Notes: generated by a model not told the origin, from the letters alone. A DNA stretch of 64,000 nucleotides from a virus (IMGVR_UViG_3300012642_000011:320001-384000), one strand, 5' to 3'. Positions 24,412 to 40,449 are shown, numbered from the stretch's first letter. Program-made: numbers and translations.

Positions 24412-24475
24412 CTTCTACTCTCCATTCGAATCTATTTCAGAGAGGAAGATCGTTGTTACTACTTAGTTGACTGCT

Positions 24476-25792
24476 TCACTTCTGGATACGATCTAAAGAA
24501 TCCTGATCCAACTCTCCGATTGCATAAACTATTCGTCTTGCATACTTTATTTTATCAAAAGGGTCTCCAAGATCAATGTTGGAATACTCTTCAACTTTAG
24601 CGCCAAGGAGCATGAGATTATCATTATCGTAATCGAGTACAGTGAATGCTCTATCCAGTGGGTCTTCAATATTGATGACTGATCGAAGAAGATTCAATCC
24701 TTCATCTTCTTCAGTGATCTTTCCTGTCATCATGTGGTAGACGATGTTTGCATAATTCAATTCGCCTTCTACCTGCTCATGAATCCTCTTCTTCTCATCG
24801 TCTGACATCTTAGAATATTCATTGTAGGTAGCAAAAACATTCTCAACGTCACTAAGAGTAATCTCATATGTTGAATGCTCTTCAGGTGGTGTCACCATCT
24901 GAACAGGTGTGCTATTTGCAACAGGTGTGCTATCTGAAACGTGATGATCACTAACAGAAGACTGATGATCTTCCGTTGTCTCATCTGTAGATGAAACAGT
25001 ATCTTCTTGTGCATCTGTGACTACAGATGTCACATCATCGTTGACATGCTCAACATTTTGTGTTTTATTATCTGTGTTTGCAACAGTTGACTCTTCAGCA
25101 TTGTTTTCATTGAGAGCAATGTTATCGTATCCGAAGGAGTAAGTGATCTCTTCAACCCTGGGTTCAAAGACACTTGAATCAAAGGGCTTTTCAGTATCGC
25201 TTTCATTGGTATTAGTAGAGGGTTCCTCTTCATTGTAGTATGAAGAATAATCCTCTGTTGGTGAGACTGTTTCTGTTTCTCCTTCTTTAGTGTCTTCATA
25301 CTCAATGGTGGTAGAAGATTCCTGAGTGTTATCTTCTGGTGCAGAAGTATATTCAGACGCAACTGGTGAAGAATAATCATCCTGTGTTTCATTCTCAGAA
25401 TAATCCGTGCTGAACATCTCTTCTTGACTCTGGTTAACCATGTCGTTTTGTGGCTCAGGTTCTGCTTTCTTACTGTTTCCGAAAATGCTGATCTTCTTCA
25501 CGTCTTCCTCGTTGTTTGTCTGAGAATAAGATGGAGTTGTAGGTGATTCATCTTCTTCATCGTTGAAGAAGTCATTACCTTCGTCTTCATCATCTGTTAA
25601 GCCACTGCTCCCAAAATAATCAGCACTGCTTGAGAAAGCAGGCTCTCTCGTGAAAATACTTGGGTCGTAGGGGATATCGCCTTCATCAGATTCCTCTGAC
25701 ATGGCTTCAGTAATGAAGTCGTACTCTGACTCTTTGCCCGTATTGAAATCGGACTCTTCTGAATGATAAGATGAACTCATATTTACTCTCAC
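24476..25792 (-). CDS. highly acidic low-complexity protein (438 aa)
   Basis: D/E/S/T-rich; overlaps the upstream gene by 4 nt. Confidence 0.5.
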   Translation of the reverse strand: MRVNMSSSYHSEESDFNTGKESEYDFITEAMSEESDEGDIPYDPSIFTREPAFSSSADYFGSSGLTDDEDEGNDFFNDEEDESPTTPSYSQTNNEEDVKKISIFGNSKKAEPEPQNDMVNQSQEEMFSTDYSENETQDDYSSPVASEYTSAPEDNTQESSTTIEYEDTKEGETETVSPTEDYSSYYNEEEPSTNTNESDTEKPFDSSVFEPRVEEITYSFGYDNIALNENNAEESTVANTDNKTQNVEHVNDDVTSVVTDAQEDTVSSTDETTEDHQSSVSDHHVSDSTPVANSTPVQMVTPPEEHSTYEITLSDVENVFATYNEYSKMSDDEKKRIHEQVEGELNYANIVYHMMTGKITEEDEGLNLLRSVINIEDPLDRAFTVLDYDNDNLMLLGAKVEEYSNIDLGDPFDKIKYARRIVYAIGELDQDSLDRIQK

Positions 25793-27873
25793 TTTGTTTG
25801 AATTGATTCAGTAATTACAATATCCTTATTTTCGTTTACAGAGATGACAATTCCGTGCGAAGAATTATTATCTCTTGTCTCAAGGTATTCAGCAAGAGCA
25901 TGGGAGATGACTTTAGATGTCTCTCGCTTGATTTCTCTTGCGCCATACTTATTGATCTGAGATTTCTCAATGATGATGTCAAGAATGCTGTGATCAAAGT
26001 CCTCAATGTGAACATCAGAATTCCTTTTCATTCTTTCTGACAGAGTATTGATTTCCTTCTGAGCAATAAGGTAACCCGTTTTTTCATCAAGATTATTGAA
26101 GATGATCATTCCGTCAAGTCTGTTGAGGAACTCAGGTTTGAAGTTTTTCTCCATCTCTTTTCTGAAAGCATCCTTGGATTCTTTTTCAGCATTGTCCATG
26201 AAGTTTGACGGCTGGAACCCGGAGATCTTCTTAGCATTCGCAGAAGACTCAACTCCTGTATTGGTTGTGAGGACAATAATAGACTTGGAAAAGTCAACAA
26301 CGTCACCAGAGGATGATGTTGCCTTTCCCTCATCAAGAACGCTCATGAACGCCATCCAAATGTCCTCGTGCGCCTTTTCTACCTCATCAAGAAGGATCAC
26401 TGTACGCGGATTGTCCTTGACAAACTTTGTCAAAATGCCGCCACCGTTCTCATCGAAGCCAGCATAGCCAGGAGGAGCACCGAAGAGTGATGATACCTTG
26501 TGCTTTTCAGTGTATTCAGACATGTTGATGAAAAGGAAACTCATCTTCTCGTCAGCAATGTTCTCAGCAATCTGCTTTGCCGCTTCTGTCTTTCCTGTTC
26601 CTGTAGGTCCAGCGAAGAGGAATGATCTCAAAGGCTTCTGGTCATCAGTGAGGCCATTGGTAGCAATCTTAAGGCTATCGACAATCTGTTTGAGTGCTTC
26701 ATCCTGACCTATAATCTTGTCTGAAAGAATTTTGTACAAGTCAGATGACTTCTTGTAAGAGATGGGGTTCAACTTAACAATGTCACTGACAATCTTTCCA
26801 TCAGCAAAGTGATCTGCTACTTTGACAAGTGAAGGCTTTCCTTCATCGTCGTAAAGATCTTCATTCTGTGCAAGAACATAGTTACCCGCAATTTTCTGTG
26901 TAATGATGATCCAGATGGAAGGCGAGAGCACTGAGAAACCATCATGATATGCAGCACTCTTTCCGACCTTTTCCTCTACAGCATTGATAGCAATCCTGAT
27001 GTCTTCCTTAGTGAAGTCAATCTTGAACTTTTCATTGATGTACTTATTGGTATTGTGGTACAAATAGTCCTCAATGAAGTTCTTCTCAAGCGGGATATCT
27101 GCATCGCTTACTTCCCAATTGTCATCTTCGCTAACGCCCTCATTCAAGAACTCTACAAGGTGTTCTTTCTCACCATAGATGATGATCTTCGCATCGCTCT
27201 TGAGCAATGAGACAGCCTGTGCAACAGTTGGGGAATCTGTCACTACGCAGATAGAGGAATCCTCAATGGCATGGTCATCTGTTACTTTCTCAAAGATGAA
27301 GTTAAAAAGATCGCTCGCATCGATGTCTACACTGTCTTCATCGACAGTGTTAATGTTGAAGTAATCCGAAGGGAACTCATCTTCATCATTCTCTTTGACA
27401 TCATTCTTTTTGAATCGAGAAATAAGTCCCTTAATATGCTTTGCAGCCTTGGAGTATGATTCTTCCTCGTGTGTGAGATTTTCCTCTCTCACATCATCGT
27501 CATCATTGGAATCCTCATCTGTGGATTCATCATTGTTTACAGAGGAAGCAAAGGCGCGAGAGAAAATCTGCAAGTTCTCATCGTCAATATGAACAAATCT
27601 CATATCTGAATCTTCATCGATCCTCGTGGAATAGCGAGAGAAGTCAGAAACGAACTGATGGGTAAGGAAACGGGAAGATAGTTTATCATCTGCAAGTACA
27701 CAGATTCTGCCGGATTCATAGAATCCGACAGCCATCTCGTCTATTTCTTCTTTATAATTTTTAGGAAGTTGCGAGATCTCCATAGGTGAAAATCCATTAT
27801 CTTTCATCGTGACATCCAGTGTTACTACGGAAGTGTTTTCTGTTGTTTCATTGGCGAAGTTTGTCACTCGCAA
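25789..27873 (-). CDS. Clp/Hsp100-like AAA+ ATPase (single D2-type module) with a ~380-aa acidic N-terminal region of unknown function
   Basis: Walker A FAGPTGTGKTE, Walker B VILLDEVEKAH, sensor 1 IVLTTN and the ClpB/ClpC-type FKPEFLNRLD segment. No recognisable Clp N-domain or ClpP-binding loop is visible. Confidence 0.7.
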   Translation of the reverse strand: MRVTNFANETTENTSVVTLDVTMKDNGFSPMEISQLPKNYKEEIDEMAVGFYESGRICVLADDKLSSRFLTHQFVSDFSRYSTRIDEDSDMRFVHIDDENLQIFSRAFASSVNNDESTDEDSNDDDDVREENLTHEEESYSKAAKHIKGLISRFKKNDVKENDEDEFPSDYFNINTVDEDSVDIDASDLFNFIFEKVTDDHAIEDSSICVVTDSPTVAQAVSLLKSDAKIIIYGEKEHLVEFLNEGVSEDDNWEVSDADIPLEKNFIEDYLYHNTNKYINEKFKIDFTKEDIRIAINAVEEKVGKSAAYHDGFSVLSPSIWIIITQKIAGNYVLAQNEDLYDDEGKPSLVKVADHFADGKIVSDIVKLNPISYKKSSDLYKILSDKIIGQDEALKQIVDSLKIATNGLTDDQKPLRSFLFAGPTGTGKTEAAKQIAENIADEKMSFLFINMSEYTEKHKVSSLFGAPPGYAGFDENGGGILTKFVKDNPRTVILLDEVEKAHEDIWMAFMSVLDEGKATSSSGDVVDFSKSIIVLTTNTGVESSANAKKISGFQPSNFMDNAEKESKDAFRKEMEKNFKPEFLNRLDGMIIFNNLDEKTGYLIAQKEINTLSERMKRNSDVHIEDFDHSILDIIIEKSQINKYGAREIKRETSKVISHALAEYLETRDNNSSHGIVISVNENKDIVITESIQTK

Positions 27874-27930
27874 CCTCTTTCTTCTGTCTTATGTGCTTAT
27901 GTTCAGCATTGTATCAAAAACAGTAGAAGA

Positions 27931-28872
27931 TCACTCACTCTCCCTGTACTTTCTCTCTTCAAGGAGAGTAGCAAGCCTGTTGACGTACTCCTGAAGGCTA
28001 GTGATCTGATCGTACATCTGGTCAAGTGAAGAGCCAGGAACAGCGTCAACAATCACTTCAGGATCAGGGAAGGTCTCGGAGGAGATAGCCATGTTGGAGA
28101 GGTTGCTCAGCACATACATTACTTCTGGTGAAACTCCACCTTCGCCCTTGATTTGAACATCAATGAACTCACCATCTGCAGATGAAGTGATGTTGTCAGG
28201 AGCGTCTGGTGTGAACCCTTCACTGTCCTTATTGGTTTCCTTTCCATCATGCTCTTCAAGGAAAGCATCTGCAGCCATTTCAAGGCCCTTACTGATGCCG
28301 TCAGCCTCCGCTTCAGCCAATGACTTCTCCTTGGCCTCAATAGCCTTCTTGTCTTCTTTCTGCTGCTCTTTCTTTTTCTTCATCATCTCTTCAAGGAAGT
28401 CTTCTGCCTCTTCTGCAGTCTTACCTTCTGTGGCTTCTCTCACCTCATCAGTGATGCGAGGAAGTTCCTTCTTGATAGCGATAGCCTGAGCTTGTGTCAA
28501 CTTTACCTTTGTTCCTTCAGGTGTTGCTTGCTCAAGTTCACGGATGACTCTTGACATGTCAAGAAGTCTATAACTGGTTTGTGGAGAGATTTCGAACTCT
28601 GTCTGCACATACTCTTTCCACGTATTGTAGCCAAGAATTCTGTATGCCTTGCCATCGTGTGCTCTAGCAAGAAGAATATAAAGAGCATCTGAAGTTGATC
28701 TGATTGCTGTAGTGAGGTCTTCTGCTTCCTCACGACTCATGGTTGCAGAACTTTCAATGATGTCATTGACATCTGAGATCATTGAATCATCTACTTCAAT
28801 TACTTCACCGGAAAAGTCCTCTTCTTGATCTTCAAGTTCAAGGTCTTCAATACTGTCGAGAATGTCATCCAT
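27931..28872 (-). CDS. hypothetical acidic protein with coiled-coil character
   Basis: ORF with SD AAAGGAGAA upstream. Confidence 0.5.
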   Translation of the reverse strand: MDDILDSIEDLELEDQEEDFSGEVIEVDDSMISDVNDIIESSATMSREEAEDLTTAIRSTSDALYILLARAHDGKAYRILGYNTWKEYVQTEFEISPQTSYRLLDMSRVIRELEQATPEGTKVKLTQAQAIAIKKELPRITDEVREATEGKTAEEAEDFLEEMMKKKKEQQKEDKKAIEAKEKSLAEAEADGISKGLEMAADAFLEEHDGKETNKDSEGFTPDAPDNITSSADGEFIDVQIKGEGGVSPEVMYVLSNLSNMAISSETFPDPEVIVDAVPGSSLDQMYDQITSLQEYVNRLATLLEERKYRESE

Positions 28873-28905
28873 GGGTTTTCTCCTTTGTCATAAAACTTTC
28901 CCCTA

Positions 28906-29571
28906 TCATAGCAAAACTGTTTTTAATACTATGATCAATGCAGGCCAGATAAAAATGGGCACCATGGGGAATGAAATTTTAGTAGTCAATATCTTTACCT
29001 CTTTATTCCTGATTTTAAAAATCAATGTATAACCAATGAGGAAAAAGAGGAATAAGTAGAGGTAGTAATTCAAACCTTGCACACCTGCAATGGGAACAAT
29101 GGAAGCACAGACAAGGATCATTGCTCTGGTATCAGACATTCCAATACCTTTGAAGAGGATTCCCAGTCCTACAATAATAAGAACAAGCAGGTAGAACATG
29201 AATGAGGACATCATATCGTTTGCCGCGTAATCCCATAAGGCGCAAGCAATCACAGAAACATAACCCATGATAAGTGTCCATCTGTATGCTCTTCTCACCT
29301 TGAAGTCAGTGACTGTTTGTACTGATGTGTACACAAGAGAAGAGGTTACAGCAGCAAGCAAAGCACTCAATGATGTAGAATTATTAATGTGATCTGCTAT
29401 AAAAAAGGACAAGCCAAAATTTGCAAGTAATGTGACACTAAGTGCAACAAGGTTGAGTTTCTTCCAATCAAATGGGTGCATTTTTTCACTCTTCATCCAT
29501 TTTTCTTGAGTCTTAAAACTGATGAAGAAAAGGAGAAGAGAAAAAATAACTGATAAACTAAGAAACAACAT
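28906..29571 (-). CDS. polytopic membrane protein (6-7 transmembrane segments), weakly prepilin-peptidase-like
   Basis: Hydrophobicity pattern across the protein. The motif GIGMSDTRAMIL resembles the A24 peptidase GxGDxK region only loosely. Confidence 0.45.
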   Translation of the reverse strand: MLFLSLSVIFSLLLFFISFKTQEKWMKSEKMHPFDWKKLNLVALSVTLLANFGLSFFIADHINNSTSLSALLAAVTSSLVYTSVQTVTDFKVRRAYRWTLIMGYVSVIACALWDYAANDMMSSFMFYLLVLIIVGLGILFKGIGMSDTRAMILVCASIVPIAGVQGLNYYLYLFLFFLIGYTLIFKIRNKEVKILTTKISFPMVPIFIWPALIIVLKTVLL

Positions 29572-29674: not shown

Positions 29675-30838
29675 TCAGAGCGCGACAATACACACAGTGA
29701 AGATCTCTTCAATGTCATTTCCATCATTGTCTACACAGACAACCTGCATGACCTTTGATTGCTCCACCCACTTGATTTTCATGTTGGCGGTAGTGACAGG
29801 CAACATAGCCTTTCTCACAGCATCTCTGAGAACAGTGATCTCAATGTCTTCTTCAATCTCTGAATCAATGAGGTCAATATTAATGCTGTTATTGTCATCA
29901 ATGTCACTCATGCTCATCTTAGAATTCTTGATGACAACCTTTAGATTCTTGGTGTTAGAATCCAAAGAAAGGTTGGAAATAGCGTTCAATGCTTTCTCAA
30001 AATCCTTCTTGCTGAATGTAGCAGACTGATTCGTTTTTTCAGCAGCCGCCTTCATCTGTTCGGAAGGCTTCATCATAACTTCATCAGAGTTGGTTGAGAA
30101 AAGGACGATTCTACCGTCACCGAAGGAATAACCGAATCCCATATTGGTAGATGTAATCAATGCAACAGGAGACCCTACTGTCTTAGTGGAGTTGGCGATA
30201 GTAGCCTTGGAAGCAGGAAGAGCATATGTCAACTGCTGTTTTTTCTTTCCACCTGCTGTCTTTGCTGGCACGAAGGGAACTCTGACTTCACTGAATGCGA
30301 ACTTGTCTGTCGCAATAGCAATAACCTGTTCAGATCCTGTTTTCTCCATATCGAAAACAAACCCAACAGAGTTGACAAGTGTCAGCGTACTGGATGGATC
30401 GGAAATCTTGGACACTCTTGAAATGATTTCAAAGAACTCTGCTTCATCAACTTCACCAATAGTGATAATCTCTGGCTCTGATGGTGAGACTTGATCCAGA
30501 AGAGGAATATGGAACTTGTTTCCCCCTTGCGTTTTCACAAGAAGTTGGCTCTTCTGCTCTTCGATCTGCATTTCACCAGGAAAATCCTTGATGACTTTGG
30601 CAAGGTTCTTCACAAACTTGGCGTCCATGAGAATTTTTGTTTCCTCAAAATCACCATTGAAGTTGCTGATGTCAAGATTATCCTTTGCATATTGTGTACC
30701 ATCAAAGAAGTACACATGCGCTGAATCCTCTGAATCCAATGCCAAAATGACGGGATGTGTTTCCTTTAACGCTGCTCCCTGTGTAACCCAAGAAATTGCA
30801 TTGGAAAAATCTTCGGAATTTATTTTAAACTTCATCAA
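29675..30838 (-). CDS. dnaN: DNA polymerase III beta subunit (sliding clamp)
   Basis: 387 aa. The N-terminus MKFKINSEDFSNAISWVTQGAA...HPVILALDSED and the three-domain length match DnaN. Confidence 0.65.
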   Translation of the reverse strand: MMKFKINSEDFSNAISWVTQGAALKETHPVILALDSEDSAHVYFFDGTQYAKDNLDISNFNGDFEETKILMDAKFVKNLAKVIKDFPGEMQIEEQKSQLLVKTQGGNKFHIPLLDQVSPSEPEIITIGEVDEAEFFEIISRVSKISDPSSTLTLVNSVGFVFDMEKTGSEQVIAIATDKFAFSEVRVPFVPAKTAGGKKKQQLTYALPASKATIANSTKTVGSPVALITSTNMGFGYSFGDGRIVLFSTNSDEVMMKPSEQMKAAAEKTNQSATFSKKDFEKALNAISNLSLDSNTKNLKVVIKNSKMSMSDIDDNNSINIDLIDSEIEEDIEITVLRDAVRKAMLPVTTANMKIKWVEQSKVMQVVCVDNDGNDIEEIFTVCIVAL

Positions 30839-30931: not shown

Positions 30932-33421
30932 TCAATTGACCATCTTGAGAACAATCTCCTTCTGCGTTCCCACAGCAAGTTTCTCCCCAGCAGGAATTGA
31001 CTGTTCACCGATCACACCGGATGGGAGACCATTCTGAGAAGCAATCTTCTCCTTGCTTACATTGGACTTGACGCCAGTTGACCTCAACGTATCCAATGCC
31101 TGCTCAGGAGACATACCCACTACGGAAGGAACTGTAAAGAAATCCTTTCGCTCAACAGGGACATTGACACGATCAGTGCTGGTGTTGTTGAAGTCAAGAG
31201 GAACAGGTGTAGTTCCCTTGAGTACATCCTTCATCACAGATGATCCAGCAATCACAGCAGTGCTTGTACCTGCACGGCCACCACGGAACCAGAAGTTTCC
31301 ATTCACACCACGAGTCATCTTATCCATGTCAGTGATGTTGATGAAGAGAGAATAATTCTTGGAAACCTGACCCCATGTGTAGTTGTAGTTCTGGTTAGTA
31401 CCAGACTTTCCTACAGCATCATAACCGGGAACGTTACCCATCAAACCGAAGGCATTGTCAACATGACCAGGTACAGTGTTTGCTCGCATAGCACGAAGAA
31501 CAGTGGACGCTGTTCTAGGACTCATAGCCGCACGGCAACTAGTGTCTTCAGGGTTATAACTCTCAGGAACAACGGGTGAAGTTCCATCAGAGTATTCATA
31601 ACTCTTCACTGATGTAGGAGGACAGTACACACCTTCATTAGCGAAGGCGGCATAGGCAGCAGCCATATCAATAGTAGAGTTTCCTGTAGCACCAAGGACA
31701 TAGGACATTGACCTGTTAGTGACGTTCTCAGGAGTATGCAGACCGAGTGAATCTGTCATTTTAAAGACAGGCTCAAGACCAACAAACTCTCCATTGGGAT
31801 AAGCAATCTTCTCAGCAAGGGCAGTGAACCATGTGTTTGATGAGTAAGCAGTAGCCTGCTCAAAGTTCAAATTCTGTGACTGAAGTTTGCTACAACCAAG
31901 GCTGTTACTGAATCCGCCACTAGGCTCATCGAAGTCACTGAAATAAAGAGGACATGGTGTGGAGAATTCCAACTGCTGTGGAGACATGCCATTTTCAAGA
32001 GCAGCAGCAAGTGTGAACATCTTGTAAGCAGAACCTGTACCTGTCCTGACAGAAGGAACATCGATAGTGGTCTTTCCGTCACCATCTCCGTATTCTCTGT
32101 TCACATCAGCGGCAAGGATTCCACCTGTTCCGGGCTGGACGATAGCAGTAGGGGCAACGACACGATTCTCATAACCAAAGTCACTCTTCAGTCGATTGGT
32201 TACCTTGTCCTGAACCTTAGGATCAAGATAAGTATGAATATGCAATCCGCCCTTATCAATGACAATAGCACGCTCTTCCTCAGTCTCTCCAAGACGAGGT
32301 GAATTGCTCAATTCTTTAAGGACACGCTCACAATAAGACTCATACTCGGATGAGGTACAGTTTCCTGTAGAAGACTTCTTGTAGACAAGGTTCAACGGAG
32401 TCGCATAAAACTCCTCAACCTTATCCTTGTCAATATGGCCCTCATCGGCCATTCTTGACAAGACCTCATTCTGACGTTCTTTAATCTTGATTGTTGTCTT
32501 CTTCTGAGCCTCATCAATGTTTCCCTTCTCGATCTCCTTGTCGAGATACATTCTTGCCTGCTTAGAAGACTTTTCTACATAGATCTTAGAGTACTCGTTG
32601 AAAACATCCTTGTTGACCTTGTTGAGATTTAGGCTAACTGGATTCTGCACAGTACCTACAAGGACTGCGGCTTCAGCCACATCAAGATCCTTGGCAGACT
32701 TTCCAAAGAAGTACTTGGATGCTCCTTCAATGGAGTAAGTAGAGGGAGAGCCGAATGAAACAAGGTTCAAGTAGTTGAGAAGAATCTCATCCTTTGAGTG
32801 GTTCTTCTCATAATCAAGAGAAAACTTCAACTCCTGAATCTTACGACTTAAAGTTGCCTCAATAGCCTTTTCCTTGTTTTTTCCAGCCATGTCATAGAAC
32901 TGATAGTTCTTGATCAACTGCTGAGTAATACCAGATCCACCACCAGAACCACTAATGGCAGCACGTGCAGTTCCCACAGGGTCAAAACCACTGTGCTCAT
33001 AGAATCTCTTGTCCTCAGTGGAGATCAAAGCATTCTTTACGTTGTCACTCACCTTGTCGAGAGAATCAAGTACCACTCGATCCTGAGAATAGATTTCAGC
33101 GAAAGGCTCACCATTGATGTCATACATCACACTTCTCTGAGCAATGGTTGCATCAGGGAGACTTTCAGGAAGATTCTTATAACTCTCAACGCTCGGAGCA
33201 GCAATAGCCAAGGCAGGTGCCATCACGACAGATCCTGCTCCAAGTGCGGCAGTTCCAAAAACAAGACCTGCTGCGCCAAGAGTCAGCCATGTCTTCTTAG
33301 GAACACGCTTGTTAGCCACGGAATTGGGATCATACTCATCAGAGGGAAGACCCTTCTCCCCGAGCAATCCTGAGAGGTTAGTATCCTCTTCCTCTACTTT
33401 CCTGTCCTTGAAAAAACTCAC
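30932..33421 (-). CDS. class A penicillin-binding protein (glycosyltransferase GT51 plus transpeptidase) with a C-terminal PASTA domain
   Basis: N-terminal transmembrane anchor. GT51 motifs EDKRFYEHSGFD and GGSGITQQL. Transpeptidase motifs GSAYK (SxxK), SSN and KSGT. The C-terminal ~70 aa is PASTA-like. Confidence 0.8.
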   Translation of the reverse strand: MSFFKDRKVEEEDTNLSGLLGEKGLPSDEYDPNSVANKRVPKKTWLTLGAAGLVFGTAALGAGSVVMAPALAIAAPSVESYKNLPESLPDATIAQRSVMYDINGEPFAEIYSQDRVVLDSLDKVSDNVKNALISTEDKRFYEHSGFDPVGTARAAISGSGGGSGITQQLIKNYQFYDMAGKNKEKAIEATLSRKIQELKFSLDYEKNHSKDEILLNYLNLVSFGSPSTYSIEGASKYFFGKSAKDLDVAEAAVLVGTVQNPVSLNLNKVNKDVFNEYSKIYVEKSSKQARMYLDKEIEKGNIDEAQKKTTIKIKERQNEVLSRMADEGHIDKDKVEEFYATPLNLVYKKSSTGNCTSSEYESYCERVLKELSNSPRLGETEEERAIVIDKGGLHIHTYLDPKVQDKVTNRLKSDFGYENRVVAPTAIVQPGTGGILAADVNREYGDGDGKTTIDVPSVRTGTGSAYKMFTLAAALENGMSPQQLEFSTPCPLYFSDFDEPSGGFSNSLGCSKLQSQNLNFEQATAYSSNTWFTALAEKIAYPNGEFVGLEPVFKMTDSLGLHTPENVTNRSMSYVLGATGNSTIDMAAAYAAFANEGVYCPPTSVKSYEYSDGTSPVVPESYNPEDTSCRAAMSPRTASTVLRAMRANTVPGHVDNAFGLMGNVPGYDAVGKSGTNQNYNYTWGQVSKNYSLFINITDMDKMTRGVNGNFWFRGGRAGTSTAVIAGSSVMKDVLKGTTPVPLDFNNTSTDRVNVPVERKDFFTVPSVVGMSPEQALDTLRSTGVKSNVSKEKIASQNGLPSGVIGEQSIPAGEKLAVGTQKEIVLKMVN

Positions 33422-33494
33422 TATTTCTTCCTAACTCTACGGTCTGGTTTGTACCTATGATAGCAAAGAGATCAGAAGAACACAAGTTGAATCA

Positions 33495-34211
33495 TTAGTC
33501 TTTGCTGAACATGTCTAACAAATCAGAGTCCTTCTTGTCTTCCAACACGATTACTGAATCCTTGAAAATCTCCTGAAGAATATCCTCTGCCCCTTCAATG
33601 TTTCCACAGAACTCATGGAAATCAATAGAAGATGAAACAATCAGGAATAATTCATTACTATAGATATGTTCAATCAATCTCTTCATAAAAGAAAGTTCTC
33701 TTGGATCGTAATGATCTCTAATCACGCCTGTAAGGACGTAGACTCTTTTATTCTTTGCGAAAAGTTTATCAACTTCTTTCTTACCCTCAAAACCTGATTT
33801 GGACAGGGCAGAAAGAGACTCTTCGTTAACAAAAGCAAAGTTCTCAAACCTCGCTCTGCCACCACTGACAAATCTTCTCCCGAGAGCATAACATATATCC
33901 ATCATCTCTGTTGTTGACCCATGACAGATGTAGACAGATGACACGCCTTTTTCATCTATGAGATCTTTGATCCTTTGCGCATTCTCTTCAGGTAGATTAT
34001 TGACTGTTACTTTTGACCATCTTTGTGGCACGCTTCGCACCCACTCCATCAAAGACTCTTTTCGTCTCTGTTTCTCAATGTCCCTGTTGACCTTGCCAAC
34101 ACCGCGCCTGATAGACTCTTTGACCTCTTTGAAAGACTCATAATCAGTCTCATTGTGGTTTACTGCCATCCTTCTTTCAGATACTCTGATTTCTGAGAGA
34201 TCCTTTGTCAT
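33495..34211 (-). CDS. hypothetical protein (238 aa), possibly a degenerate helicase-loader-like protein
   Basis: ORF located 3' of dnaB. The weak P-loop-like segment ICHGSTTE is not convincing. Confidence 0.4.
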   Translation of the reverse strand: MTKDLSEIRVSERRMAVNHNETDYESFKEVKESIRRGVGKVNRDIEKQRRKESLMEWVRSVPQRWSKVTVNNLPEENAQRIKDLIDEKGVSSVYICHGSTTEMMDICYALGRRFVSGGRARFENFAFVNEESLSALSKSGFEGKKEVDKLFAKNKRVYVLTGVIRDHYDPRELSFMKRLIEHIYSNELFLIVSSSIDFHEFCGNIEGAEDILQEIFKDSVIVLEDKKDSDLLDMFSKD

Positions 34212-34675
34212 GACGCCTTCCTCCTTCTATTGCGCGGGGATGCAGAATGTGATTCAGGAGACACTCCTGAAGTTGATCTTTTCTTAACATTTCTTGTTCG
34301 CTGAGTTGGCTTTTTATTCCTACTCCTCATTTGATCTAAAGATGATAGTGTATACTGATTGATGTCTCTCCTGTGATCAACAGCAAGATCAATCATCTCC
34401 ACTAACTTCCTCTCACTCCAATCCCCATTAAGCACCATAATCCTATACGTGTTCTTTACATCTGCCATGAATCGAGCAATCTCAGATTGAGACTTTTTAC
34501 TGAAGAGTTTCCTATACTTCTTAGCCGGTTCTTCGTTCTGGATATAAGTAAGAAATAAAGATAAGAAAGCATTCACCTTGTCTTCTGTTTCAGACTTCTT
34601 GAGAGCAGAAGCAATCTTATCATCTTCATCCAGACGCATAACATCTAGTAATCCATTAAAATCTGTCTGTGTCAT
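34208..34675 (-). CDS. hypothetical protein with a basic C-terminus (155 aa)
   Basis: ORF overlapping both neighbours by 4 nt. Confidence 0.45.
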   Translation of the reverse strand: MTQTDFNGLLDVMRLDEDDKIASALKKSETEDKVNAFLSLFLTYIQNEEPAKKYRKLFSKKSQSEIARFMADVKNTYRIMVLNGDWSERKLVEMIDLAVDHRRDINQYTLSSLDQMRSRNKKPTQRTRNVKKRSTSGVSPESHSASPRNRRRKAS

Positions 34676-36147
34676 AGGAAATCACTCACATCGTCATCAT
34701 CGAAATCGAAATCTTCAAAATCACTGCCCTCATCTCCTGCACTTTCTTCAATCTCTTCATCAATGTTATCAATCGAATCCTCTGTTTTAATCTCATCAAA
34801 TCGAGAATATTGGAGATTGGAATGACAATGGATGAATTTCTGCGATTCACCATCTCTGTTCTTTGCAAGGATGACTGTTGTCTTTGGTGTTGACCCATCC
34901 TTTGAAGGCTCTCTATGGAGAAGAATAACGATATCAGAATCCTGTCCCAAAGATCCAGACTCACGAATGTCATCAATCTTTGGCAGTTTATCCTCTTCTT
35001 CACTTTCGTTGCCGCTTGATCTCTTCAACTGAGCGAGCACCATCACAGGAACGCCAAGACTCTTTGCAATCAACTTCATATCTCTAGAGATTTCAGCAAC
35101 CTGTTCCTGACGGCTTCCATGTTTGCCTTTAGGTGTGATCAACTGAAGATAATCAATGATCACCATGTCTAATCCTGCCTCAGACTGTGCTTGACGATCA
35201 CAACGCGCACGAATGGAATCAGTAGTCAACTTCTCATCCGTATCAATTTTAATCTTCATGTCTTTAAATCGCTCAAGAGCAACGTCCAAGTTCTCTTGAT
35301 CTTCCTCATCAATATTTCCACTCTTCAAATTGTTCAAGGAAACGTTTGAAAGGCAAGAAACAATCCTGTCAACAATGGACGCATGTCCCATCTCCAATGA
35401 GAAGAAGAGAACAGATTTTCCTGCCGATGCAGCGCTCACGGCAGACATGACAGCAAAAACGGACTTACCAACACCAGTACGAGCACCCACTGTAATCAAC
35501 TGGCTATCTTGCCAGCCTCGCGTGTACTTGTCTAAAGTGTCTAACCACGAGGGGATTCCTTGCAACCCATTGGCAAGTTCCTTGTTCTCCTCTGCCTTGA
35601 TCTTCCTATCCTCAAGTATTTCATTGTAATTCTCAAGATACTCAGACAAGTCGGTTGTTGTAGCATTATCAGAAAGACTGATCAATTCCGTGTTGAAACT
35701 GCTCATCATACCAGAGATGGTCTCAGATGCTGTCACTCCTGAATCAAGCGAAAGGAAATCTTTGTTTTCCTCAAGTACCTTTTTGATTCTATTCTTTGTG
35801 GCGAACTCACTGACGACAGAAGAAAGTCTTTCTATTGTTGACTTTGTAGCGTACTCTTCGCCCTCGCTAGTCAATGAGTAAATTGCTGAAATACCACCAA
35901 TGGTTTCAAGATTGTTGGATCTTGCAAGTTCTTGGCTAACAGTATACTGGTTGATGTCACTGTCTGTTCTGGACAACTGGAAAATAGCATAGAAAATACT
36001 CTCCATGACTGGATCTTCGAAGTCTTCATAACTGACAATCTCAAGAGCTCTTTTAGATTCACTGCTATCATAGAGTAAAGACGCAACCAACTGTCTCTGC
36101 GCCAAATCATACAACTCTTTAGATTTGTCAGTCATCTCCAAAACCAC
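34672..36147 (-). CDS. dnaB: replicative DNA helicase DnaB
   Basis: Walker A GARTGVGKS and motifs FSLEM, IIDYLQL, QLKRS and ESGSLGQDSD. The acidic C-terminal tail ends DDDDVSDFL. Confidence 0.85.
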   Translation of the reverse strand: MVLEMTDKSKELYDLAQRQLVASLLYDSSESKRALEIVSYEDFEDPVMESIFYAIFQLSRTDSDINQYTVSQELARSNNLETIGGISAIYSLTSEGEEYATKSTIERLSSVVSEFATKNRIKKVLEENKDFLSLDSGVTASETISGMMSSFNTELISLSDNATTTDLSEYLENYNEILEDRKIKAEENKELANGLQGIPSWLDTLDKYTRGWQDSQLITVGARTGVGKSVFAVMSAVSAASAGKSVLFFSLEMGHASIVDRIVSCLSNVSLNNLKSGNIDEEDQENLDVALERFKDMKIKIDTDEKLTTDSIRARCDRQAQSEAGLDMVIIDYLQLITPKGKHGSRQEQVAEISRDMKLIAKSLGVPVMVLAQLKRSSGNESEEEDKLPKIDDIRESGSLGQDSDIVILLHREPSKDGSTPKTTVILAKNRDGESQKFIHCHSNLQYSRFDEIKTEDSIDNIDEEIEESAGDEGSDFEDFDFDDDDVSDFL

Positions 36148-36209
36148 CCCTATAAAAATTCTTCCGATTGAGATTCTATCAAAATCGCCGTCTGATCAGT
36201 TACTGTCTT

Positions 36210-37601
36210 TTAATCCTTGATGCTCTTGTTAGCGCTCTCACGCGCCTTATATGAAGCACCATGAACACCCTGATACAATCTTGTGATGCTCATCATCTGG
36301 TTGTTGAAGAACTCTTTCATCTTTTCTCTAATCTCATCTTCTCTGATACTAGAAATAGCCCGCTTCTGACTATCCATGAGTTTCATCACGTAAGGTGCAG
36401 CCTCTGATGACCTGTCTGCTCTTGCCAAGAATGTCAATACTTTGGCAAAATTATTGATTGACTTTGGATCAACTGAATTCTGTTCAGCATAGCGAAGAAC
36501 ATCATTGACCTCACTATGTGACAATGTTCCCCAACCATCAAAGGATTGGGGATCTGCAAATATTTCGGAGACGTTGATCCTTGACTCAAGATTATTTCTT
36601 TTCAGCCATCCCCTAAAGACACTAGCAGCCTTGATTCCAATAAGCCCCACAGCAGCATTATCCTCAATCATGGGGTCTGTTGTCTGCATAGAGGAAAGCA
36701 CTTTAATCAGATTATCCCAACTTCTTCTTGACGGCCATGCATACTGCATCACAGTCATAGATACATCGTCATTTATATCCCCCATCCCCATCATTGCAGC
36801 CATGCCGTCAATACTGGAATTGGACACTTGACGTGAGTTACCTTTCATCCTATCATTTAATGTTGAACCACTTACCGATTTACCATCATCTATAGTCCCA
36901 TCCATATTGTGTAGCCATCCAGGATTCTCCTTAATGAAGTCGTGAACAATCTGCCTCCATCTTTTCTCTTCATCAGAAAGTTGATCACCCTTTCCCCAAT
37001 TATCAATCATTCCCGATAACCATGATTCCACTGTTGGCTTCCACGCAATGAACATCATTCTGTTCACTGTTGCCTTATCCATCTCATAACCATCTGCTGC
37101 TGAAGACGTTGGGTTCATTGCCCCTACTAAAATCGTCTCCTCAGGAAGATAATCACCATTGGGAAATTGCCTGTCTTGGAAGAAGGAAAGCAATGATGCA
37201 CGCACTGATGGCGGTGTGTTGGAGAATTCATCAACGAAAACCATGACTCTCTTTTTCTCCATCACTATCCACTGCCAATATTGTGGAGCATATGCAGTCA
37301 TGATTCCTATTTTTTCGCCACTCTCATTGATAACGTCTTCTTTCGTAGGGAAACCAGAGATATCCTGTGGCTCCATTCTTGACGGCACAATAATGATCAA
37401 AAAATACCCTAAACGTTCTGCCAGTGCTTTAACCATAGCCGTCTTTGATGTTGCAGGATCGCCCACAAGCATAGGCATGATTCGGGCGCGCATGGCCGCT
37501 TCCATAGTGTGATAGGCTACAAAGTCTGTTTCTTTTAATGATACCATTGTCTTCCTTAAAATAAATAACTCTCCCAGAGTTATATCTGGGAGAGTTATCA
37601 A
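36210..37601 (-). CDS. MoxR-like AAA_5 family ATPase
   Basis: Walker A GDPATSKT, Walker B VMVFVDEF and sensor 1 LVGAMNPT, with a long C-terminal extension. Confidence 0.6.
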   Translation of the reverse strand: MITLPDITLGELFILRKTMVSLKETDFVAYHTMEAAMRARIMPMLVGDPATSKTAMVKALAERLGYFLIIIVPSRMEPQDISGFPTKEDVINESGEKIGIMTAYAPQYWQWIVMEKKRVMVFVDEFSNTPPSVRASLLSFFQDRQFPNGDYLPEETILVGAMNPTSSAADGYEMDKATVNRMMFIAWKPTVESWLSGMIDNWGKGDQLSDEEKRWRQIVHDFIKENPGWLHNMDGTIDDGKSVSGSTLNDRMKGNSRQVSNSSIDGMAAMMGMGDINDDVSMTVMQYAWPSRRSWDNLIKVLSSMQTTDPMIEDNAAVGLIGIKAASVFRGWLKRNNLESRINVSEIFADPQSFDGWGTLSHSEVNDVLRYAEQNSVDPKSINNFAKVLTFLARADRSSEAAPYVMKLMDSQKRAISSIREDEIREKMKEFFNNQMMSITRLYQGVHGASYKARESANKSIKD

Positions 37602-37619
37602 TTGGATGTTAGAAGATCA

Positions 37620-38783
37620 TCACTTCTTTGACTCAGGAGCCTTGATGGAAACAGTTTCCGTTTCCTCAACGGCAGCAAGATCCTCATCGATATCATCATT
37701 CAAATCAACTTCAAGGTTCTGAGAATCAAAACCACCTTCCTTCATGTTTTCACGAGCAGTTCTCATCATCCTATCAATGACATCGGGGTTTTCTGAGAGG
37801 AATGTCTCAGCCTCTGCCCTTGACTTACCGATGATTTCACCTGTCTCAGCGTCAATATAAGTCCTATTGTTCGGTCTCTGAATAACTCCGAACTTATCCC
37901 CAACTGTAAGAAGTTCTGCTACTCTATCCAGTCCTGACCCGAACCTGATAACTGTAGAACCCTTGGCACCGGGAGGTGCAATCTTGTTCTTCTTGACCTC
38001 GAACGTCAACTTTGATGCAGATGCTGCAGATTCATTGTTTCCTGAACGCTCTTCAATCTTCGACCTCTTAATTTCAATTCTCTGTGAAGCATAGAACTTC
38101 GTTGCCTTACCACCGGGAGTCGTCTGTGGTGTACCATAAGGAGAGAATCCACCAATCTGATCACGAGTCTGGTTGATCAAAATAAAAGTTGTTCCTGTCT
38201 GACTGGCGAGACCAATCAACTTTCTCAATCCCGCAGAGAGTTTACGAGCAAGAAGCCCAACAGTGATATCTTCTGCACCGCCTTCAAGTTCAGCAAGTGG
38301 AACCATAGCAGCAATAGAGTCCAAGACAACAAGTTTAAGCATGCCGTCTTCAGCAAGTTGACACATGAGATCAATTGCCTTTTCAGCATAAGAAGGCTGT
38401 GCATAAACCAATTTATCCATATCTACGCCCAATTTCGCAGCATAACTGGGATCAAGGGCATATTCCATGTCAATGAAACCCGCATAACCACCATTCTTAT
38501 GGACTTCAGCAATGGATGTCAAAGCGAACGTCGTCTTACCTGAGGATTCTGGCCCAAAGATCTCAATAACTCTGCCTACAGGGATTCCACCGCCCAAAGC
38601 ATTGTCCAGAACCATTGATCCTGTGCTTATAGTGGGAACATTCTTAGGCTTATCGCTCATAAGCATGATGCCAGAACTTTTGAAAACGCTCTTATCGTTG
38701 CTAAACGATTGTACATAATCCTGAATATTCTTTTCAATTTCACTTTTTGCTACCATTTGACATTCTCCTTTTATTTCTGGCAT
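37620..38783 (-). CDS. recA: RecA recombinase
   Basis: GPESSGKTT P-loop and RecA-collinear core (LDSIAAMVP ... FINQTRDQIG), plus a ~60-aa acidic C-terminal extension. Confidence 0.85.
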   Translation of the reverse strand: MPEIKGECQMVAKSEIEKNIQDYVQSFSNDKSVFKSSGIMLMSDKPKNVPTISTGSMVLDNALGGGIPVGRVIEIFGPESSGKTTFALTSIAEVHKNGGYAGFIDMEYALDPSYAAKLGVDMDKLVYAQPSYAEKAIDLMCQLAEDGMLKLVVLDSIAAMVPLAELEGGAEDITVGLLARKLSAGLRKLIGLASQTGTTFILINQTRDQIGGFSPYGTPQTTPGGKATKFYASQRIEIKRSKIEERSGNNESAASASKLTFEVKKNKIAPPGAKGSTVIRFGSGLDRVAELLTVGDKFGVIQRPNNRTYIDAETGEIIGKSRAEAETFLSENPDVIDRMMRTARENMKEGGFDSQNLEVDLNDDIDEDLAAVEETETVSIKAPESKK

Positions 38784-38853
38784 CTATACGTTAAAGTATT
38801 TCTTATCTCTTCGGACTCTGCCGACACAAGTCTATTTTAACTAAAGGCTGTTT

Positions 38854-40449
38854 CTAAAACTCAGAGAGTTGCAAAATTTTTATCAATCCTTTAATTCCTT
38901 CGGGAACAAGGTTGTCTTTTTCAGATATGACAAGCATTACATAAACGATTTGAGGGTTAGCGCTTACTATGTCAGCGATCTTCTGCCAATCATCTCCCCC
39001 GAGTTCGGCATCTGTGGCAAGTACGAAAACATCAGGCTGATCTTTACGAGGCAGTTCTGTCACATACCTATACCCTACAGACATCGTGGTGCCACCACCG
39101 ATACTCAAGTCAAGTTCTTTAAACGACCTTACTTTTCTGATCTGAGAAACAGAAGTTGATACCGCGAAAAAACTCATGTTCCTTCTTGTCTTGAAAGCCT
39201 TTGCAACAATTCCTTCTGCCTCAGATACAGCGGCCTCAATTTTCTCTGTCCCCATGGAACCAGAGATATCAGTTGCAAACATCAAAGTAGGCTCATAGGA
39301 GATTCTACCTGGCATGATGAAATCACCCTGTGACCTTCTGTTCACTCTCTTGTAAGAAAGGTGCTCATGACCTGATTTTGCTTCTGTGTAAGCCTGACTG
39401 ATCAGACGAGCAAACTCTTTTGTCCAATCCATCTTCGGCGCTGTGATATTAGCCACCATTGCCGCCAAAGCATCACTGACATTCTCGCTATATCCAGAAG
39501 AAGATTTGATTTCCTCTTCAATCCTTTGTATTGCAGATGAAATTGCATTAATCTGCTCTACTGATCCTGCCTTTTCAATACCTGCTTCATCAGCATGATG
39601 CTTTCTTTCATCATTCAGTTGGTCGCATTCATATCCTGCTTCAGAAGACTCTGCATAGCCTTCTGAAGCGTTAGAACCACTTGACCCTGACTCTGATCCT
39701 TCACCGTCTCCACTGCTCTCAGAATCGCTCTCAGCGCCCTCTCCGGCCCCTTCTCCTTCTTGGTTACCATCTCCCTCTTGGCTTTCATCACCATCACTAG
39801 AACTGTCCTCAGAGGAACTTCCCTCATCACCATCTTCCTCTATTTTGTTCTCTGTCTCATAGTAATCTTCTGAGTCAGACTCGCCCTCATTGACAGTTGC
39901 ATTTTCTTCCTCTTCTATCTCCTGATCTTCATCCTGTTCTTGTTCATCATAGTCATGAGGTTCATCTGTGATCTCAATGTCGTCAGGATTTCTTTTCTTC
40001 TTCGCATTTAATTTCTTTAAATAATATTCCATAGACTTTCGGGGAGCAAGTCCATATCTTTTGGGCGTTAAGATTCCTTGAGGTGCCTTTATCACAGTAA
40101 GTTTCATGGAATCCAACAATGTGGTGTTGATTTCAAGGTCTGCACTAATTTGAGCATCATCCAATTCGTACTCTTGGGTTCTAATCACATGGGCATTAAG
40201 CACATGCAATGCTTCATGTGTGACAACAAACGCTCTTTCTGCTGGCGTGGTTTTAGTGAAAAACCAATCGCTCAATCCCACTCTGATGTCAGCATCCACA
40301 TAGGCTGTTTTAGCAGTAGAGTCATAGAAAGGACGCATGGAAAGGAATATATCAATCAGGTGAGGCATCTCTGACTGTGCAAGGACGATAGCCCCATAGA
40401 AGGTCTCTTTCTCTTCTGGTGTCAAGTGTCTAATAAAATTCTTCTTCAT
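38854..40449 (-). CDS. DUF2201-type putative metallopeptidase (HExxH) fused to a VWA domain with a MIDAS motif; candidate partner of the AAA_5 ATPase
   Basis: N-terminal HEALHVLNAH, C-terminal FATDISGSMG (DxSxS), and a long acidic Ser/Gly/Glu-rich linker between them. Confidence 0.6.
   Translation of the reverse strand: MKKNFIRHLTPEEKETFYGAIVLAQSEMPHLIDIFLSMRPFYDSTAKTAYVDADIRVGLSDWFFTKTTPAERAFVVTHEALHVLNAHVIRTQEYELDDAQISADLEINTTLLDSMKLTVIKAPQGILTPKRYGLAPRKSMEYYLKKLNAKKKRNPDDIEITDEPHDYDEQEQDEDQEIEEEENATVNEGESDSEDYYETENKIEEDGDEGSSSEDSSSDGDESQEGDGNQEGEGAGEGAESDSESSGDGEGSESGSSGSNASEGYAESSEAGYECDQLNDERKHHADEAGIEKAGSVEQINAISSAIQRIEEEIKSSSGYSENVSDALAAMVANITAPKMDWTKEFARLISQAYTEAKSGHEHLSYKRVNRRSQGDFIMPGRISYEPTLMFATDISGSMGTEKIEAAVSEAEGIVAKAFKTRRNMSFFAVSTSVSQIRKVRSFKELDLSIGGGTTMSVGYRYVTELPRKDQPDVFVLATDAELGGDDWQKIADIVSANPQIVYVMLVISEKDNLVPEGIKGLIKILQLSEF

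Follow-up and report, generated by a model that had tools for sequence, protein, structure and literature searches.

Enzymes that polymerise peptidoglycan are classic examples of housekeeping proteins and of targets for antibiotics. In this report, we describe a gene for such an enzyme on a stretch of DNA catalogued as viral (IMGVR_UViG_3300012642_000011, positions 320001 to 384000; this whole stretch of 64,000 nucleotides is referred to below as “the window”). The gene, at positions 30932..33421 on the minus strand, encodes a class A (bifunctional) penicillin-binding protein (PBP), and we conclude that it is very probably a functional core gene of a family of giant non-chromosomal elements with actinobacterial affinity. 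A more specific statement, to which we assign about an even chance, is that the window belongs to an extrachromosomal giant of at least 332 kb and of an unnamed family, that this element is plasmid-like and resides in an actinobacterial host, and that the PBP acts as a functional core protein in the wall of that host. Class A PBPs on mobile DNA have precedents in plasmids and in the giant streptococcal elements called Inocles. What is new is that this PBP is a core gene, fixed and under strong constraint, within the replication block of a large, apparently undescribed, actinobacteria-linked family of elements of 0.1-0.73 Mb.

The gene begins with a GTG codon, 6 nt 5' of which a Shine-Dalgarno sequence (AGGAAG, 33427..33432, minus strand) can be read, and its product is 829 amino acids (aa) long. 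Three Pfam domains were matched in the protein, all of them above the curated cut-offs, and the PBP_1a (PBP1A) family was the top NCBIfam model. A basic cytoplasmic tail (KRVPKKTW) leads into the single hydrophobic segment found by a hydropathy scan (aa ~46-75; 33197..33286), a putative N-terminal membrane anchor that appears as a low-confidence helix in the structural model. Beyond it lie a GT51 glycosyltransferase (GT) domain (aa 104-273; 32603..33112; PF00912 Transgly, E 5.9e-43), with catalytic residues E136 and E197, and a transpeptidase (TP) domain (aa 427-694; 31340..32143; PF00905, E 4.8e-20). A single PASTA domain (aa 763-820; 30962..31135; PF03793, E 3.8e-10) completes the C-terminus; precomputed domains include a PASTA match in 120/120 homologues, among the matches listed.

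In an alignment of 17 family members with a mean column identity of 59%, the motifs of both active sites are invariant (17/17). For GT51, these are E136 (TEDKRFYEH), GGSGITQQ at 160-168, R193-K194-x-x-E197, K210..N219 (K..ILL.Y.N) and R316-Q317..V320 (RQ..VL); for the transpeptidase, they are S464-x-x-K467, S527-S-N529 and K672-S-G-T675. Because all of the catalytic residues are invariant, a pseudo-enzyme resulting from substitution of the catalytic Ser or Glu is excluded at the sequence level. The original prediction, made from the nucleotide sequence of the window, had described a full-length class A PBP that ends in a PASTA fold and keeps both active sites intact, and had named such a substitution as the observation that would overturn it. 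That description is upheld by the Pfam matches, the motif alignment, the selection analysis, the structural model and the structural matches.

An AlphaFold2 model built from the family alignment has a mean predicted local distance difference test score (pLDDT) of 79; the transpeptidase (85-97) and PASTA domains mostly exceed 80, and the latter has an alpha+beta topology. The top folds in the PDB are those of full-length bifunctional enzymes, namely S. aureus PBP2 (3DWK, 2OLV), E. coli PBP1b and A. baumannii PBP1a, with E values of 1e-29 to 1e-24 against full-length S. aureus PBP2 and E. coli PBP1b, and the transpeptidase domain superposes on M. tuberculosis PonA1 with a TMt of 0.74. The linker between the two catalytic domains bears a lineage-specific insertion of 45 aa (aa ~271-326; 32444..32611, minus strand) that is confined to the window clade (P0001-P0003 in alignment A1) and is modelled as helices H271-283, H286-298 and H304-326 (pLDDT about 87-94). 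Three pairs of cysteines are invariant in the family: C355/C364 and C600/C629 are otherwise encountered only in actinobacterial PBPs, and C490/C510 is specific to the family. Alignment and model alike point to an intact, apparently active bifunctional cell-wall synthase and not a pseudo-enzyme.

The place of this gene among its neighbours is equally well conserved. A search of 5.8 billion proteins returned a single 97% identical relative, a pair at about 62% identity and hundreds more in the range 42-53%. All of these share the three domains, and many are encoded on very large contigs; homologues within the conserved block range from 39 to 97% in overall identity. The gene order of this block (DUF2201, RecA, MoxR, DnaB, x, x, PBP, (x), clamp, x, x, Clp-like, x, RecG-like, with x for a further gene) is retained on contigs of 727,572 bp and 681,645 bp, and the block is present in 22-27 of 30 related loci. 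It also occurs on a ~96-kb contig and, in reduced form, on ~100-kb contigs whose PBPs are 42% identical to that of the window; some IMG/VR contigs are syntenic with the window for more than 70 kb. Among non-redundant members, the pairwise distances of the PBP track those of its neighbours (r=0.91 for the RecG-like helicase, 0.88 for the ORFan p313 and 0.82 for DnaB), and its mean aa distance (0.48) is smaller than those of the RecG-like protein (0.54), DnaB (0.55) and the clamp (0.66). The ratio of nonsynonymous to synonymous substitution rates (dN/dS, Nei-Gojobori) is 0.018-0.14 in every pair with unsaturated dS, denoting strong purifying selection. In these sequence comparisons, the PBP is a vertically inherited, constrained core gene of the element family. 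It had been regarded in the original prediction as an unusual gene embedded in a mobile module, on the premise that bifunctional PBPs are normally chromosomal. The first view must be abandoned, and the premise overstates the rarity of the arrangement: PBP homologues are found on 601 PLSDB plasmid records, including megaplasmids of the Arthrobacter group that encode a PBP with PASTA, and on Inocles (PMC12340149).

The replicon that bears this block is very large. A PBP of identical sequence is encoded on a 332,269-bp ENA metagenomic contig (ERZ27289831:k141_11150), of which the window spans about 262-326 kb. Members of the PBP cluster recur at discrete contig sizes, the pattern expected of complete replicons: a ~344-kb class (343,299, 344,889, 344,924 and 347,407 bp; IMGVR_UViG_3300045988_179014 is one example), a ~410-kb class (394-424 kb), a ~520-kb class (495-540 kb) and a ~700-kb class (670-727 kb). 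The GC content of members with conserved synteny varies from 34 to 61%. Among 185,579 species-representative bacterial and archaeal genomes, the family was found solely on one 5.2-kb contig, from a metagenome-assembled genome labelled “uncultured Actinomyces”; the next-best matches there, the closest chromosomal actinobacterial PBPs, are about 30-33% identical. At none of the surveyed loci were genes for rRNA, ribosomal proteins, RNA polymerase or aminoacyl-tRNA synthetases found, and DnaA boxes show neither enrichment nor clustering. Given this near-absence from species genomes, together with the lack of translation and transcription genes and of a DnaA-box cluster at the surveyed loci, the replicon is not a chromosome; it is extrachromosomal. 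The original prediction had left room for the contig to be chromosomal, and that possibility has thus been disposed of. A megablast of 24 kb around the PBP gene against phage and plasmid collections gave no match, and a search for a repeated DNA motif that might locate other parts of the element yielded no usable one. Contigs L214, L215 and L219 and the IMG/VR contigs of 105-119 kb to which the HNH gene led are not members of the family.

The PBP also carries a pointer to the host. In a neighbour-joining tree with cellular homologues, the placement that the original prediction had called for, the PBP family forms a single clade (200/200 bootstraps) that joins the actinobacterial PBPs (200/200), inside which its closest neighbours are sequences from Arthrobacter megaplasmids. 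The best PLSDB matches, with coverage through the PASTA domain, are likewise on plasmids of Arthrobacter, Paenarthrobacter and Pseudarthrobacter, 375-440 kb in size; a nominally genomic scaffold of A. terrae proved to be collinear with a plasmid of A. caoxuetaonis. Other genes lean in the same direction. NucS and an M23 peptidase with LGFP repeats, both of them typically actinobacterial, are encoded on one relative; a TnpB relative, 44% identical, is annotated from Varibaculum cambriense (Actinomycetaceae); and the phage proteins that match the family's NlpC/P60 domain belong mostly to actinophages. The best PDB matches of the clamp (5ah2, 3rb9 and 5agu) are what we take to be mycobacterial clamps. 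Judged by the affinity of the PBP, its cysteine signature, NucS, the LGFP repeats and the relative of TnpB, the host is most likely actinobacterial.

The nearest clade to the family consists of the PBP of a 375-kb plasmid of Arthrobacter caoxuetaonis (WP_227897425.1; plasmid NZ_CP099467.1) and those of other Arthrobacter, Paenarthrobacter and Pseudarthrobacter megaplasmids. The A. caoxuetaonis protein has the same order of transmembrane (TM) segment, GT51, TP and PASTA and shares two of the cysteine pairs, yet is only about 30% identical. MoxR, VWA/DUF2201, DsbA-like and M50 proteins, an RNA ligase and NrdEF are common to that plasmid and the window's element, as is a 568-aa protein described below, whose homologue (296,149-297,798) is encoded immediately downstream of the plasmid's PBP. 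In contrast, the replication core (DnaB, clamp, RecA and RecG-like protein) is not shared, and the plasmid's PBP gene does not lie between helicase and clamp. The plasmid further differs in its GC content of 64.5% and in having genes for ParA, a T4 coupling protein, FtsK, SecYEG and type IV pili, which were not seen in the surveyed parts of the window's element; its annotation includes no virion genes. This cultured replicon also has 37 tRNAs, SecY/SecE/SecG, DnaE, NrdEFI, two sigma factors, ClpX, thymidylate synthase, DHFR, RtcB and RNA and DNA ligases, and itself belongs to a little-noticed type of giant element.

Among chromosomal enzymes, M. tuberculosis PonA2 (Rv3682) has the same class A architecture with one C-terminal PASTA domain. 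The element's PBP resembles the PonA2-type class in this single PASTA domain and in its actinobacterial placement, and differs from it in lacking a chromosomal housekeeping locus, in the additional pair C490/C510 and, for the window clade, in the helical linker insertion. The PASTA domain of PonA2 has been linked to adaptation to dormancy (PMC6151718), a link that, by analogy, fits a role of the element's PBP in stress tolerance.

What kind of replicon carries the PBP is a less settled matter. The survey on which our answer is based covered the window, 7 kb beyond it and about 30 kb on contigs L220 and L230 (about 100 kb in all), plus about 150 kb from relatives. In neither the 100 kb nor the 150 kb did Pfam or PHROG yield any match to a capsid, portal, terminase, sheath or baseplate protein. 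As a control, two genuine jumbo myoviruses (L214 and L215) were sampled in the same way, and matches to gp13, gp25 and sheath appeared within 20 kb. Membrane proteins account for 34-54% of the genes in the element and its relatives vs 7-10% in these controls. Two comparisons point the same way: the nearest PBP relatives are found on the cultured Arthrobacter plasmid described above, and Inocles are a published case of giant plasmid-like elements with a conserved bifunctional PBP, tRNAs and insertion sequences. We therefore slightly favour a plasmid-like nature for the element; a huge phage is possible but unlikely, and something other than these two is improbable. The suggestion in the original prediction that the replicon might be a plasmid or megaplasmid is accordingly at least as likely as a phage. 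As no virion gene was detected, its description of the replicon as “phage-like” is sustained by the replication, nucleotide-metabolism and homing-endonuclease content alone, and not by any structural or packaging gene in the DNA surveyed.

Several observations weigh against a plasmid-like element in an actinobacterial host. The survey amounts to only about one third of a genome-equivalent, so that a virion module of 50-70 kb could have escaped it, and L220/L230, although very probably parts of the window's own element, are ascribed to it on the strength of an insertion sequence (IS) copy 100% identical to that at the end of the window's contig, a tetranucleotide correlation of 0.96 and an origin in the same sample series. 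No ParA, Rep, relaxase, VirB4, VirD4 or InoC was found in the surveyed parts, where plasmid-type signals are limited to a T2SSE/VirB11-type ATPase and a weak ParB_N match on relative L217. Further, IMG/VR catalogues as viral the 26 contigs on which it carries the family. Features typical of large lytic phages abound: multiple copies of HNH/DUF723 homing endonucleases, a family common to the genuine jumbo myoviruses L214 and L215; inteins in NrdE, SNF2 and probably DnaB; a T4 Rnl1-type RNA ligase; an Alt-like ADP-ribosyltransferase; and, in relatives, arrays of 24-37 tRNAs with a possible suppressor. The GC content of the window (42%) is low for most Actinobacteria. Finally, the function of the PASTA domain is itself uncertain, in that nuclear magnetic resonance titrations of the PASTA domain of PonA2 showed binding of neither muropeptides nor beta-lactams (PMC6151718); its role in the present protein is uncertain for the same reason.

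These observations give substance to the possibility, on balance unlikely, that we are dealing with a tailed phage of Actinobacteria whose genome is huge (330-730 kb) and that the PBP is a conserved auxiliary gene which keeps the wall of an enlarging infected cell intact, delays lysis or blocks superinfection. The contig sizes fall within the range reported for huge phages, up to 735 kb (Al-Shayeb et al. 2020, PMC7162821), and a preprint on the oral phageome (10.1101/2020.07.06.186817) reports circular “jumbo phages” of >300 kb and “megaphages” of >500 kb; with these the element has in common its size, replication and nucleotide genes, tRNA arrays, homing endonucleases and inteins. A thymidine kinase, and the DUF3310 protein and S24 peptidase on a ~100-kb relative, could be added to the same side. 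Unlike such phages, the element has no virion genes in the surveyed parts, and its cargo is centred on the envelope: besides the many membrane proteins, it includes an adhesin-like repeat protein, DsbA, a site-2 protease, a kinase and phosphatase, Hsp20 and a Bax-inhibitor, a content that suits long-term residence. The relatives' PHROG matches to “minor tail”, “tail” and “virion structural protein” were rejected as evidence of a virion, because their alignments are confined to the NlpC/P60 domain (aa ~225-375). No class A PBP is described in either the huge-phage survey (PMC7162821) or the oral preprint, and a literature search on PBPs of huge phages and of giant elements from actinobacteria found the Inocle paper (PMC12340149) alone to be relevant. 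The sole “isolated phage” match that covers both PBP domains, in Microcystis phage MaAM05 (MW495066.1; L231), was dropped as a precedent because its neighbourhood (glyS, secF, engB, fabI) looks chromosomal. In that record, gatD also lies near the PBP-like gene, annotated “mtgA”, and this part of the sequence may not be phage DNA.

The tRNA arrays in IMG/VR relatives lie at L133:13779-21763 (37 genes) and L136:15034-21302 (24 genes). That of L133 includes a predicted suppressor tRNA with the anticodon UUA, reading UAA, and that of L136 adjoins a TROVE/Ro60-like gene.

The published elements closest in description are the Inocles, giant non-chromosomal elements of 245-395 kb and 24-32% GC that are hosted by Streptococcus (Kiguchi et al. 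2025, Nat Commun, PMC12340149). A protein comprising a TM segment, a transglycosylase and a transpeptidase is one of only two wall or membrane genes conserved in all four Inocle taxa, and it has been proposed to boost or modify the synthesis of host peptidoglycan (PMC12340149). That the element is simply a member of this family from oral Streptococcus, with its PBP being the Inocle “bifunctional transglycosylase”, is nevertheless very unlikely. The likenesses are considerable: a size of about 330 kb, IS copies that break assemblies, tRNAs, repair and replication genes, many membrane and wall proteins, an N-terminally anchored and conserved bifunctional PBP, and an S24/S26-type peptidase on one relative. 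The GC content (42% here and 34-61% in relatives) and the actinobacterial, not streptococcal, affinities speak against it. So does the content of the surveyed parts, about 30% of the element, in which several Inocle markers were not seen: neither Pfam scans nor precomputed lists gave a match to the InoC marker (Replic_Relax, PF13814), no VirB4, VirD4, sortase A or LPXTG protein was encountered, and the window itself has no LPXTG motif and no additional P-loop ORFans. In a comparison made by description only, the element also differs from Inocles in the PASTA domain of its PBP, which goes unmentioned for the Inocle protein, and in the 500-727 kb that some of its relatives reach. Two IMG/VR contigs, L166 (348,222 bp) and L177 (330,208 bp), have 23-24% GC and several HNH-family copies, and in size and GC they resemble Inocle-delta.

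A view of the PBP as a passenger of recent capture, or as a pseudo-enzyme in decay, that serves the element in no conserved way is hardly tenable. PBP genes do move, as their many plasmid records attest, and the window clade does have its own insertion; against this stand the monophyly of the family, the conserved position of the gene, the co-variation of its distances with those of replication neighbours, the low dN/dS, the invariance of every catalytic residue, and the confident modelling of the insertion as a helical element and not a disruption. Scarcely credible is the notion that this is an ordinary chromosomal PBP on a small or unusual bacterial chromosome, for example that of an ultra-small reduced lineage with a 0.7-Mb genome: the largest contigs are of the size of a small bacterial genome, and DnaB, a clamp, RecA, RecG, SSB, ribonucleotide reductase (RNR), HU, an SMC/SbcC-like protein and near-complete tRNA sets are encoded, but the translation and transcription genes listed above are missing from every surveyed locus, the majority of genes are ORFans, the clamp is barely recognised by Pfam, the species genomes contribute one 5-kb contig, DnaA boxes do not cluster, homing endonucleases, inteins and IS are dense, and syntenic members span a wide range of GC content.

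How might a plasmid-like element make use of such an enzyme? Remodelling of the host wall, as offered in the original prediction, is the best functional reading; nothing points to the sporulation that it offered alongside. Scans for promoters and terminators around the PBP gene gave signals at chance level only, and we thus place the gene in a long co-directional array, in which it is presumably co-transcribed with its neighbours. The PBP would then be expressed together with the replication block and inserted in the host membrane at its anchored N-terminus, both catalytic domains facing outwards. It may be stabilised by three disulfides, of which two follow the actinobacterial pattern, probably formed with the help of the element's own DsbA-like protein. 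The GT51 domain would polymerise lipid II by means of E136 and E197, the transpeptidase would cross-link the strands through S464, and the PASTA domain could be an accessory or localisation module like that of PonA2. Candidate partners include the element's hydrolases (M23-LysM, NlpC/P60-G5 and lytic-transglycosylase-like), a protein with three PASTA domains, the kinase and its PP2C phosphatase, the site-2 protease and the giant membrane proteins. The outcome would be synthesis and repair of peptidoglycan owned by the element, maintaining or reshaping the host wall under stress and around the element's envelope machinery. If the element is instead a phage, the same activity could serve the upkeep of the wall across a long infection.

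The envelope genes in question are distributed over several contigs. Relatives encode a membrane protein with three PASTA domains, an endopeptidase that joins NlpC/P60 to G5, a lytic-transglycosylase-like protein and the M23 peptidase with LGFP repeats; motif inspection revealed an M23 peptidase with LysM on L220/L230. The latter contigs also encode DsbA-like thioredoxins, one of them a CPHC lipoprotein, an M50/PDZ site-2 protease, a Ser/Thr kinase beside a PP2C-like phosphatase, and a giant surface protein with CshA/Big_9 repeats that is adhesin-like. On L217, RmlA-like (NTP_transferase) and RmlB-like (dehydratase/epimerase) genes are inserted, within 1682-5890, between the PBP gene and the two small ORFs. 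Genes for an RmlC-like protein and for further epimerases are close by. The Rml-like genes could contribute to the synthesis of wall polysaccharide or to sugar chemistry for the modification of DNA.

A bolder reading, which we regard as rather doubtful, is that these replicons form an undescribed deep lineage of giant (0.1-0.73 Mb), actinobacteria-linked elements, either huge phages or Inocle-like elements outside Streptococcus; that the PBP, through its position between helicase and clamp, couples replication or segregation to wall synthesis; and that the element runs a self-contained envelope programme. Were this so, the programme would be made up of the PBP, the GPGCGW protein described below, the protein with three PASTA domains, the hydrolases, DsbA, the kinase and phosphatase, and the giant membrane proteins.

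Returning to the plasmid-like element that we favour, the conservation of a PBP as a core gene suggests that such giant elements remodel the cell wall of their host rather than merely riding along in it. They may reprogramme the host envelope, with effects on growth, on tolerance of stress and possibly of beta-lactams, and on surface properties; additional copies of PBPs on mobile DNA would bear on antibiotic susceptibility. The observation made for Inocles is thereby extended past Streptococcus, to elements of actinobacterial affinity and of up to 0.7 Mb. Further, “viral genomes” of this type in IMG/VR may not be viruses, and the clade of PASTA-bearing PBPs could serve as a handy marker gene for detecting the elements.

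The genes around the PBP account for the rest of the conserved block. Between 7.4 and 64 kb of the window, the minus strand carries nearly all of the genes, and the cumulative GC skew declines monotonically. GC content is 42.8% for the whole window, 41.7% between 8 and 64 kb and about 50% between 1 and 7 kb; the module had been called AT-rich, which holds only to a moderate degree. Directly downstream of the PBP gene is that of a divergent beta sliding clamp (DnaN-like; 29675..30838, minus strand), with a match to the N-terminal domain of Pfam DNA_pol3_beta (E 2e-4). A phmmer search of the PDB with this protein returned beta clamps, 5ah2 being the top match (E 2e-6), and homologues were found at 24 of 30 related loci; sequence similarity thus speaks for a homology that is weak yet genuine. 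The neighbours named in the original prediction, DnaN, DnaB, RecA and RNR, are all real by their Pfam and PDB matches, the clamp being the weak one. Past the clamp, a downstream block (21029..29571, minus strand) that is kept in 12-27 related loci encodes a 6-TM protein (28906-29571), the ORFan p313 (27931-28872), for which the PDB sequence search found nothing, a ClpB-like AAA+ protein (25789-27873), an ORFan of 438 aa, the RecG-like helicase (21643-24411) and a 3-TM protein (21029-21646), the ClpB-like and RecG-like assignments coming from Pfam.

On the other side of the PBP, an upstream block (33495..40449, minus strand), whose order is kept in relatives, starts with two ORFans (238 aa and 155 aa) between the PBP and DnaB genes and continues with Pfam-assigned DnaB (34672-36147), a MoxR-type AAA protein (36210-37601), RecA (37620-38783) and a DUF2201 metallopeptidase/VWA protein (38854-40449). 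Beyond it, Pfam identified an HNH protein, the T4 Rnl1-type RNA ligase (41191-42654), a Bax-inhibitor-1 protein and SSB. The ADP-ribosyltransferase-like protein (9306-10085) was recognised through Alt-like and exoenzyme matches in PHROG; an Alt-like ADP-ribosyltransferase and an Rnl1-type ligase are typical phage functions for takeover and tRNA repair, found here on an element in which virion genes were not detected. The RNR region (10279..17888, minus strand), of class Ib type by Pfam and PHROG, consists of NrdE with two inteins (10279-14859; Hint near aa 179, and Intein_splicing with LAGLIDADG at aa ~813-1193), an HNH/DUF723 homing endonuclease of 577 aa between nrdE and nrdF (15170-16903) and NrdF (16914-17888). 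NrdE and NrdF of the window are 61% and 71% identical, respectively, to the products of nrdE and nrdF on the Arthrobacter plasmid.

A membrane-anchored cysteine protein of 568 aa (47808..49514, minus strand) is a further core gene product; tblastn and profile (HMM) searches connect it to the gene beside the PBP on the Arthrobacter plasmid. Its GPGCGW motif and five conserved cysteines are seen in alignment A4, where the motif is invariant, and homologues in family contigs are 36% identical; no match was found in Pfam, PHROG or a PDB sequence search. It may be a partner of the PBP. The gene lies in a cluster of membrane-protein genes (45086..62601, minus strand) recognised by hydropathy and by synteny in relatives. 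Two giant polytopic proteins are encoded at its far end, one of 1105 aa with ~9 TM segments (55094-58411) and one of 1397 aa with ~7 (58408-62601). Neither matches Pfam or PHROG, and a tblastn search of phages with the 1397-aa ORFan found none; in general, PHROG and Pfam scans gave no matches for the ORFans of the window. The thought that the giant ORFans are RNA polymerase beta-prime-like was rejected, as the motifs are absent and both are polytopic membrane proteins. They have large cysteine-containing ectodomains and long, charged C-terminal tails, and the pair is kept (about 28% identity) beside the PBP block in IMG/VR locus L031. About 3.5 kb past the end of the window, the near-identical contig L113 encodes the T2SSE/VirB11-type ATPase (T2SSE, E 4e-25); a scan of IMG/VR with this ATPase as a single protein found nothing. 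The giant membrane proteins and the nearby ATPase may constitute a novel trans-envelope apparatus.

Just past the window's end, near-identical contigs also encode HU-like proteins and an SbcC/Rad50-like ATPase, followed by a second TnpB at the contig break. Copies of the TnpB/IS605 gene lie at 7452-8753 in the window (minus strand; Pfam OrfB_IS605 and Cas12f1-like_TNB), at L113:1-750 and at L220:10001-11305 and 17445-18749. Because one copy sits exactly at the end of a short-read contig, IS copies probably break the assemblies, as has been reported for Inocles. Between the two copies on L220/L230 are seven tandem paralogous genes of ~210-240 aa, and the same contigs encode two DNA methyltransferases, an HD-domain RelA/SpoT-like hydrolase and Hsp20.

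The window's TnpB gene forms, with three tRNA genes detected by ARAGORN and Rfam, a cluster (6410..8753, minus strand) at the switch of strand and GC content. The tRNAs, tRNA-Leu(UAA), tRNA-Glu(UUC) and tRNA-Asn(GUU), decode codons ending in A or U, a set that would be of use to an element shifted towards AT in a host richer in GC. On the far side of the switch (1-6300), GC is about 50%, compared with about 42% elsewhere, and the genes are on the plus strand. Tandem units of ~410 bp at 2435-4090, each beginning with AAGGAGA-N5-ATG, suggest 3-4 small paralogous genes, and the longest six-frame ORFs of this segment are probably spurious ones on the minus strand; a look-up of the ORF at 727-1305 gave no record. 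Situated where strand and GC skew switch, the segment may represent a hypervariable island or one of recent acquisition. Long, near-perfect intergenic hairpins with arms of 20-23 nt occur at 7057-7112 and 7178-7231, which flank the tRNA cluster, at 20976-21024, after the 21029-21646 gene, and at 40472-40518, between the HNH and DUF2201 genes. These hairpins may be terminators or regulatory sites.

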